This document shows, in pieces, positions 48,733-50,088 of a DNA stretch of 64,000 nucleotides. Position numbers and translations under genes: made by a program. Each line of letters opens with the position of its first letter. Within the stretch, counting starts at the first letter, position 1. The stretch lies in the NCBI RefSeq assembly GCF_013122565.1, contig NZ_CP053258.1, one strand, 5' to 3'. The notes below the pieces were generated by a model, which had not been told where the DNA came from, did not search any database, and was given only the letters and a program-made list of their open reading frames with translations. Source of the stretch: Escherichia coli. GTDB lineage: Bacteria; Pseudomonadota; Gammaproteobacteria; Enterobacterales; Enterobacteriaceae.

Positions 48733-50088
48733 TCACCAACCCCCCCCGTACGTGAGTACCGTTCTGGACAACTCTCCGTTTTCATTTATATGTGGAAAAT
48801 CATATTGTGTACTGAATCGCCATACATCTTTCTTTTCTGGCTCGCTGTTCACAGAGATACGTCGATGGAAGGTCCCTCCTATAAACGTGCGCCAGAACAA
48901 TTGTTGATCAAAATCTTGTAATATCGCAGACTTGGATGCTATTTGACGTAGTAAACCTGCATACCGTGGACTGCCATTACGAGCAACATTATGCAAACCC
49001 TGACTAAAAGCATCAAACAAACAATAGGTGTGATCACTAGTGAAAAAAGGTCTTAATTTTTTTTGTTCTTCATCGCTGTAATCCAGGAGCATCTCATTGA
49101 TTTCTTCCGGTGAGAATTTTAAGACAAAATTATCCTCAGAATTTGTTTGTTTCTTGTTTTTTTCAATATTCTTCTCCTCAATGCTCTTCGCATTTTGTTT
49201 CGCAATTATTTCCTCAGTTTTTTTCTCAATTACTTCCGCAATTTTTTCCCGAGTTTTAAATTTTAAACTAACACCATCGATGTCAACCGGTGTTGTTTTC
49301 AGATCTCTCTGCGCGTCTTCCAAATTTGTCTTATAGAGTTTGTGCAGTTTATCTGCAGATACGTATCCGGATGAAGAAATCTGGTGTGTACGCATGGGGG
49401 GCTGTTCACAAAGCATCGAAGCTATATCGTCTTTAAACTCTTTTACATTAAAGTTATCGGCATTAACCTTCCTTGTTATAAACCCCGCATCGGCAATTTT
49501 CTTCTCTAATTGTTTTGTACGTTTAGAATAATAAGCGTTGTTATCATAAAACTTTTCAAGAAGGGCCCACTCCTCAAGTTGCCTTATGTGATTTTTCAAC
49601 TGTTGATGATCTATTTTATATTCATGTGTACTAGAATCATTTTGGTTGCAGGAGTTACAGATTTTTAAGCATAATTTTCCATCAGATTTATCATCTATGG
49701 TATCAGTGAAAATATAGGACACTTCAATACTCTGCCCGTTCTTATCAGTCATCTCATATGACCATTGCCCCGTTCGTTTCGCATTCTTAATGACTTCGAT
49801 CGACTCTACAGGACAACCATGAAGAATGGGCAGAATTTTATCAGGATGCTTAATGAGTAAAATTATTATATTTACAATGTTTGAAAAGAAATTTTTGCTA
49901 TTTTTTATTTCATCGATTTTTTCCGCTGAAATGTTTACTAAGTTTTCATTTCCGGAAATGAAAAGCGATTTGCCATAGGTGCTTTTTTTAAATTGTTCTT
50001 CTGTTTTAGAAAAGACATCCTCTTTAAAAGGTGGCAACTCAGCACCAGTAATAAACGGTTTCAATAAATTCGAATTTGAAATTGTCAT
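48733..50088 (-). CDS. Orphan 451-aa hypothetical protein, no family recognised; Cys cluster, K/E-rich helical segment, C-terminal Cys-box
   Basis: Intact ORF with GGAG RBS 7 nt upstream of ATG; strongly AT-rich; inserted between acpH and malZ, which are adjacent in K-12; motifs CLKICNSC (aa 140-147) and DHTYCLFDAF (aa 352-361). Confidence 0.7.
   Translation of the reverse strand: MTISNSNLLKPFITGAELPPFKEDVFSKTEEQFKKSTYGKSLFISGNENLVNISAEKIDEIKNSKNFFSNIVNIIILLIKHPDKILPILHGCPVESIEVIKNAKRTGQWSYEMTDKNGQSIEVSYIFTDTIDDKSDGKLCLKICNSCNQNDSSTHEYKIDHQQLKNHIRQLEEWALLEKFYDNNAYYSKRTKQLEKKIADAGFITRKVNADNFNVKEFKDDIASMLCEQPPMRTHQISSSGYVSADKLHKLYKTNLEDAQRDLKTTPVDIDGVSLKFKTREKIAEVIEKKTEEIIAKQNAKSIEEKNIEKNKKQTNSEDNFVLKFSPEEINEMLLDYSDEEQKKLRPFFTSDHTYCLFDAFSQGLHNVARNGSPRYAGLLRQIASKSAILQDFDQQLFWRTFIGGTFHRRISVNSEPEKKDVWRFSTQYDFPHINENGELSRTVLTYGGGW

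Follow-up and report, generated by a model that had tools for sequence, protein, structure and literature searches.

The uninterrupted run of eight cytosines at 48740-48747 of the window (the whole 64-kb stretch of Escherichia coli DNA that was analysed) is probably the site of a +1 frameshift, private to this lineage, in an uncharacterised accessory gene, a reading to which we assign a probability of roughly 0.75. Comparison with orthologs indicates that the eight-base run is the mutant state of this gene and not its natural end, because deletion of a single C restores the C-terminal tail common to the family. The features of a frameshifted allele are present: longer, intact orthologs are collinear with the window ORF, an indel whose length is not a multiple of three lies within a repeat, and reversal of this 1-nt indel (C8 to C7) recovers the conserved downstream peptide. 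The change would be a case of ordinary gene decay at a homopolymer, routine in kind and of little wider consequence.

The tract and the end of the reading frame

The carrier is a truncated ORF on the minus strand (48733-50088) of 451 aa, ending in LTYGGGW and orthologous to ECs_0454 of O157 Sakai (EDL933_RS02335; a hypothetical protein of 481 aa). The plus strand reads CCCCCCCC at 48740-48747, a C8 run that corresponds to G8 on the minus (coding) strand and falls among the final codons of the ORF as called, exactly as the initial annotation had described. The 3′ end of the ORF on the coding strand is CTC ACG TAC GGG GGG GGT TGG TGA (L T Y G G G W stop). Gly448 and Gly449 are encoded entirely within the run, which also gives two of the bases for Gly450, and a Trp codon follows before the stop at 48733-48735. 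Because this Trp codon lies between them, the run does not directly precede the stop, contrary to the initial wording (a terminal GGG just before the stop). The coding strand across 48733-48747 can also be written GGGGG-GGU-UGG-UGA-A, in which a 3-nt spacer separates an SD-like G run from a sense codon and the in-frame UGA after it.

The C8 tract is an uninterrupted mononucleotide run of slippage-prone length inside the ORF. Its occurrence is statistically unremarkable; the 64-kb window holds two C/G runs of at least 8 nt (48740-48747 and 51052-51059), compared with ~0.7 expected under a first-order Markov model, and such runs are not enriched in the window.

Both shifted frames are computed to be open downstream of the tract. 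With one C fewer the ORF would encode 481 aa and end at 48642; with one C more it would encode 487 aa and end at 48626, with a tail unrelated to the family. The prediction that a one-nucleotide change would alter or extend the C-terminus is borne out, extended ORFs being found in both alternative frames; what had been overlooked is that the present C8 itself appears to be the frameshifted mutant, C7 being the state that yields the family-conserved 481 aa. The C7 product, obtained by removing one C from the window, has the tail GVGESNFKDIANHSSEYFSYRCYAAPLDANAKK, and an out-of-frame remnant of this C-terminal tail persists at 48642-48740 on the minus strand as 32 open codons and a stop, readable once one G is removed. 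Because the run falls at codons 448-450 of 481, both states include 93% of the protein.

The 32 out-of-frame residues of the window (VGESNFKDIANHSSEYFSYRCYAAPLDANAKK) match the family tail (VAESNFKDIANHSSECFSY[R/S]CYAAPLD[A/V]NAKK), which reads GVAESNFKDIANHSSECFSY[R/S]CYAAPLDANAKK in the orthologs. Most of these residues are invariant in a 24-sequence family alignment, and Gly-Trp-stop stands in their place in the window. Few parts of the protein are as well conserved as the lost tail, so the truncated product is likely to be impaired; with 32 near-invariant residues gone, the effect is not obviously minor, as it had been taken to be.

Orthologs and the distribution of the tract

Although initially described as an orphan, the ORF is matched by orthologs in 1127 of 5426 complete E. 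coli genomes, located between acpH and malZ as in the window; the gene is always chromosomal and occurs once per genome. Annotated orthologs in the records fetched have a length of 1446-1458 nt or more, and their 3′ ends lie 20 nt from the acpH stop, a position that corresponds to 48642 in window coordinates and not to 48733. In an alignment of the window with six E. coli genomes, the orthologs carry CAA-CCCCCTCG and the window CAACCCCCCCCG; on the coding strand, TTC GAG GGG GTT (then GCT) of the orthologs stands opposite TAC GGG GGG G GTT of the window. Orthologs thus have GAGGGGG at the frameshift site (CCCCCTC on the plus strand, 7 nt); the substitution GAG>GGG (T>C on the plus strand) fuses its G1 and G5 into an unbroken run, and one extra G shifts the frame. 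The alignment places this 1-nt insertion within the repeat, exactly where the frames part.

The site is contained in 48 fetched loci, and the lone C8 among them is on a Logan contig of SRR11451224. The other 47, drawn from complete genomes, draft assemblies, and 30 metagenome contigs, all have the interrupted, in-frame CCCCCTC with an intact tail and encode proteins of 461-493 aa; a variable-gap pattern scan likewise recovered the 7-nt interrupted form in every one of 30 metagenome contigs. Among the 1127 complete genomes, an 80-nt consensus around the tract is present exactly in 936, and the remaining 191 match it at 95-99% identity. Eleven rows were sampled from this band: ten span exactly 80 nt with one mismatch and unchanged length, and the eleventh aligns only in part (bases 13-80), where it is 100% identical and free of indels. 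Across the 47 loci and the 1127-genome consensus scan with its sampled remainder, no other strain with an uninterrupted tract was found. The tract had been flagged as liable to change in length; no length polymorphism was observed, but the other 47 loci, with the 7-nt interrupted form, lack the tract, and its length can be compared only between the two records of the C8 allele, both of which have 8.

Lineage-specific k-mers spanning the tract are CACCAACCCCCCCGTACGTGAG for C7 and CACCAACCCCCCCCGTACGTGAG for C8. In a collection of ~15 billion proteins, the exact 451-aa product is on record only on the SRR11451224 Logan contig. Look-ups of the exact MalZ, AcpH, QueA, and Tgt alleles gave no further copy of the C8 allele; besides one close relative, in which the tract is ancestral, they turned up many strains whose site is empty or holds an ordinary allele.

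The closest relative, L038 (GCA_052983875.1), has a MalZ protein identical to that of the window and DNA 99.14% identical over 7.8 kb; it has an interrupted tract and a 481-aa ORF, and shares with the window a C8 run in malZ. In the region 42000-48621 (secD/secF, yajC, tgt, queA, and acpH), the best identity among the 5426 complete E. coli genomes is 98.7%, with O157:H7 at the top. Because core-gene identity reaches only 98.7% at best, the E. coli lineage of the window appears not to be represented among the complete RefSeq genomes searched.

Origin of the run and alternative explanations

The window and L038 differ at 18 positions in 48625-48881, at none in 48882-49472, and at one in 49650-52048. 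A divergent patch at 48694-48881 holds 13 window-private changes (those differing from both L038 and O157) in 188 nt (~7%), including the run-fusing T>C and the extra C, and is followed by 590 nt identical to L038. Window-private codon changes are 13 nonsynonymous to 2 synonymous, compared with a neutral ratio of ~4:1, and are clustered around the tract. Identity of the patch to complete E. coli genomes is 90-95% in all, with a best match of 93.2%; searches of species-representative genomes with the DNA pattern and the protein found no donor or out-of-species ortholog, and self-BLAST of the window gave no paralog for the patch. Given that L038 is identical in the flanking ORF sequence, the patch may most simply be read as a short recombination import from an unsampled divergent allele, with a local mutational burst as the alternative origin. 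So sharp a boundary is not expected from uniform drift after inactivation.

Under a lineage-private frameshift, the substitution GAG>GGG would have come first, arriving within this short, highly diverged patch and giving G7; slipped-strand insertion during replication would then have extended G7 to G8, and the shifted frame would meet Gly-Trp-stop two codons on, with loss of 32 conserved residues. The order of these steps is one that we infer, the G7 intermediate allele having been found nowhere and the exact C7 and C9 products of the window allele both being absent from the ~15 billion proteins. In E. coli, mononucleotide runs act as hot spots for indels, whose rate rises exponentially with run length (PMC8510543), and in Escherichia the repeat number of such tracts correlates positively with the percentage of pseudogenes, which tend to have the higher repeat numbers (PMC8928963). 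The out-of-frame tail has remained open throughout its length, which fits a very recent mutation, and fits also a sequencing error or a reversible switch.

If the extra base were a sequencing or assembly error, the true tract would have 7 C and the gene would be intact at 481 aa. Homopolymer length errors are a common artefact, the frame of the downstream tail is wholly open and family-like, and the allele has one other record only, possibly derived from the same reads. That record, a Logan k-mer assembly from the reads of SRR11451224, has the same 8-nt run in an 85-kb contig, encodes the 451-aa product, and is 100% identical to the window over 7356 nt; since the two records of the C8 allele are identical over 7.3 kb they probably come from the same isolate, and the Logan assembly, which may share isolate or reads with the window, is thus not an independent biological observation. 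A control of the same length, for both sequencing accuracy and tract stability, is provided 2.3 kb away by the second C8 run (51052-51059, minus strand), which lies in intact malZ and was created by substitution, being interrupted in O157 (CCCCACCC). Neither the window nor L038, an independent assembly, is out of frame at this run, which gives no sign of a systematic length error at 8-mers, and the substitution cluster around the tract shows that the region is truly diverged. A miscall is accordingly unlikely in our estimation; the initial caution that the site is prone to sequencing error keeps a small share of the probability, but the Logan assembly and the in-frame malZ run disfavour it. 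The other possibility raised in the initial annotation, a phase-variable site, would have G7 and G8 toggle between full-length and tail-less protein by reversible slippage under selection. In its favour, a G8 without interruption is long enough to be prone to slippage (PMC8510543), the frame is open after a shift in either direction, with the -1 state giving the conserved protein, and the family is hypervariable in other respects (a VNTR that keeps the frame, repeated frameshifting at homopolymers, and dN/dS at ~0.56). [quoted passage not shown] No length polymorphism was observed among the fetched loci or between the two C8-allele records, and the lack of enrichment of C/G runs of at least 8 nt in the window also speaks against such a switch. 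E. coli is, moreover, normally mismatch-repair proficient, and its classical phase variation operates by DNA inversion or methylation. The poly-G and poly-C contingency loci of Neisseria, Haemophilus, Campylobacter, and Helicobacter do resemble the tract in having an unbroken G/C run of ~8 in a coding region whose length sets the frame, but theirs are conserved among strains, variable in length, usually 5′ or in promoters, and present in many genes per genome, none of which is seen here; the window tract is neither maintained in orthologs nor placed at a 5′ end or promoter where a shift would switch expression. A contingency site is not supported by these comparisons and we consider it quite unlikely; reversion by slippage could in principle occur, with no sign of switching being used or maintained.

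Recoding would mean that the G8 template still yields full-length protein, either through transcriptional slippage with loss of one G or because ribosomes shift by +1, within the G run or else at UGG-UGA. In the +1 frame the conserved tail is intact, and it is this tail that would be read (GAA AGC AAU and onward) after a shift by +1 at UGG-UGA. The G-rich run, 3-nt spacer, codon, and UGA also loosely resemble the +1 frameshift site of prfB, which consists of a G-rich SD-like stretch, a sense codon, and an in-frame UGA; in both, the SD-like stretch lies a few bases upstream of the sense codon and the in-frame UGA, and the ORF continues in the +1 frame. Against this, re-pairing of tRNA-Trp on GGU is impossible, and slippage of the ribosome by -1 on G GGG GGG leads into the C9-type frame, which is not that of the tail; the layout is private to one lineage and conserved in no homolog, the homologs being without the run and needing no shift. 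A transcriptome-wide survey of E. coli found insertions only in A/T runs, G/C runs not prone to slippage, and in-run deletions rare (PMC5574713); the run is a G8 and not of the A/T type known to slip in transcription, and since restoration of the frame requires the loss of a G, transcriptional rescue is unlikely. We find recoding hardly credible as an explanation. Frameshifting of the prfB type in particular was rejected on codon re-pairing and non-conservation; the site lacks a slippery P-site codon (UGG to GGU cannot re-pair), is not conserved, and has UGAA where prfB has UGAC, and the resemblance appears coincidental.

The lineage-private frameshift, our preferred reading, has parallels in the homopolymer frameshift alleles and pseudogenes of Escherichia and Shigella accessory genes, in which a single-base insertion in a run leads to a premature stop, intact orthologs exist in relatives, it is plain how the frame would be repaired, and the same gene has been frameshifted independently elsewhere. 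It differs from them in that only the last 7% of the protein is removed, with a loss of function that we infer, and in that the run was made by a lineage-specific substitution inside a diverged patch. In inlA of Listeria monocytogenes, a poly(A) tract at the 5′ end underwent a slippage deletion from A7 to A6, deduced from population genetics, that arose at least twice (Orsi et al. 2010, PMC2831843). As in the ECs_0454 family, some lineages there have a stable interrupted tract (A2GA4 in inlA, GAGGGGG here) and a continuous, slipped tract truncates the protein elsewhere (PMC2831843); in contrast to inlA, the run here is a G run at the 3′ end and is found in one lineage only.

The island and the gene family

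The order of genes in this part of the window is tgt, queA, acpH (48040-48621, plus strand), the ORF, and malZ (50276-52093, minus strand), which is the E. coli arrangement. The ORF lies on an AT-rich accessory island of 1651 nt (1.65 kb; 48625-50275), with 33-39% GC over most of its length compared with ~54% in the flanks. The island fills exactly the space between the convergent acpH and malZ stop codons and is absent from most E. coli; in strains with an empty site the two stops are 4 nt apart.

The O157:H7 Sakai ortholog, ECs_0454, is annotated as a hypothetical protein. All homologs are from Escherichia or Shigella, with identities of at least 88%, and none was detected outside these genera. 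Sequence searches with the ORF protein against Pfam, NCBIfam, PADLOC, PHROGs, and PDB gave only sub-threshold noise, and an exhaustive HMMER search of 1.84 billion cluster representatives returned only fragments of the same family and one marginal match (E=5.7e-4). An AlphaFold2 model built from the 24-sequence alignment had a mean pLDDT of 41.5 and was on this account judged unusable. No Rfam match was found in 48000-50500, and a scan for promoters and terminators gave sites no more numerous than in shuffled sequence. Literature searches on ECs0454 and ECs_0454 yielded no relevant paper, and those on malZ with acpH nothing relevant.

Purifying selection on the ECs_0454 family is weak, the pairwise dN/dS having a median of 0.56. 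A 12-nt tandem repeat (49189-49249, minus strand) lies in frame in the middle part of the ORF, which is rich in Lys and Glu codons; the copy number of the repeat varies among strains, with 4.1 copies in the window and 7.1 in the locus L043; the copy number of this repeat explains the length classes of 461-493 aa, which rise in steps of 4 aa.

Frameshifts at homopolymers recur within the family. A conserved A7 run in the middle of the gene (49157-49163, minus strand), in frame in the window, is frameshifted in independent strains: the locus L067 (about 1000-2720) has A8 in place of A7, and an O157 DEC4C allele (P0004; 322 aa, 14 contigs) leaves the frame at the same run. Two further alleles (P0072 and P0076) restart after a 5′ A7 run, which is in frame in the window (49983-49989). 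These independent frameshifts in other strains suggest that the gene is dispensable and that its decay has repeatedly begun at its repeats. Its presence on an AT-rich island of restricted distribution, the in-frame VNTR, the weak purifying selection, and the recurrent homopolymer frameshifts might also be taken to describe a hypervariable, contingency-like E. coli gene, in which case the G run of the window would add a further reversible state (on/off or tail-on/tail-off) under selection in the host; we regard this as decidedly improbable. Since the family is restricted to Escherichia, is present in about one-fifth of E. coli including O157:H7, and has undergone repeated repeat-mediated changes in length, it is a possible candidate for a gene under fluctuating selection.

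The ORF is more appropriately annotated as a frameshifted (truncated) allele of the ECs_0454 family than as a native orphan of 451 aa, and the 111 nt between its called stop (48733) and acpH as decayed coding sequence rather than intergenic DNA.
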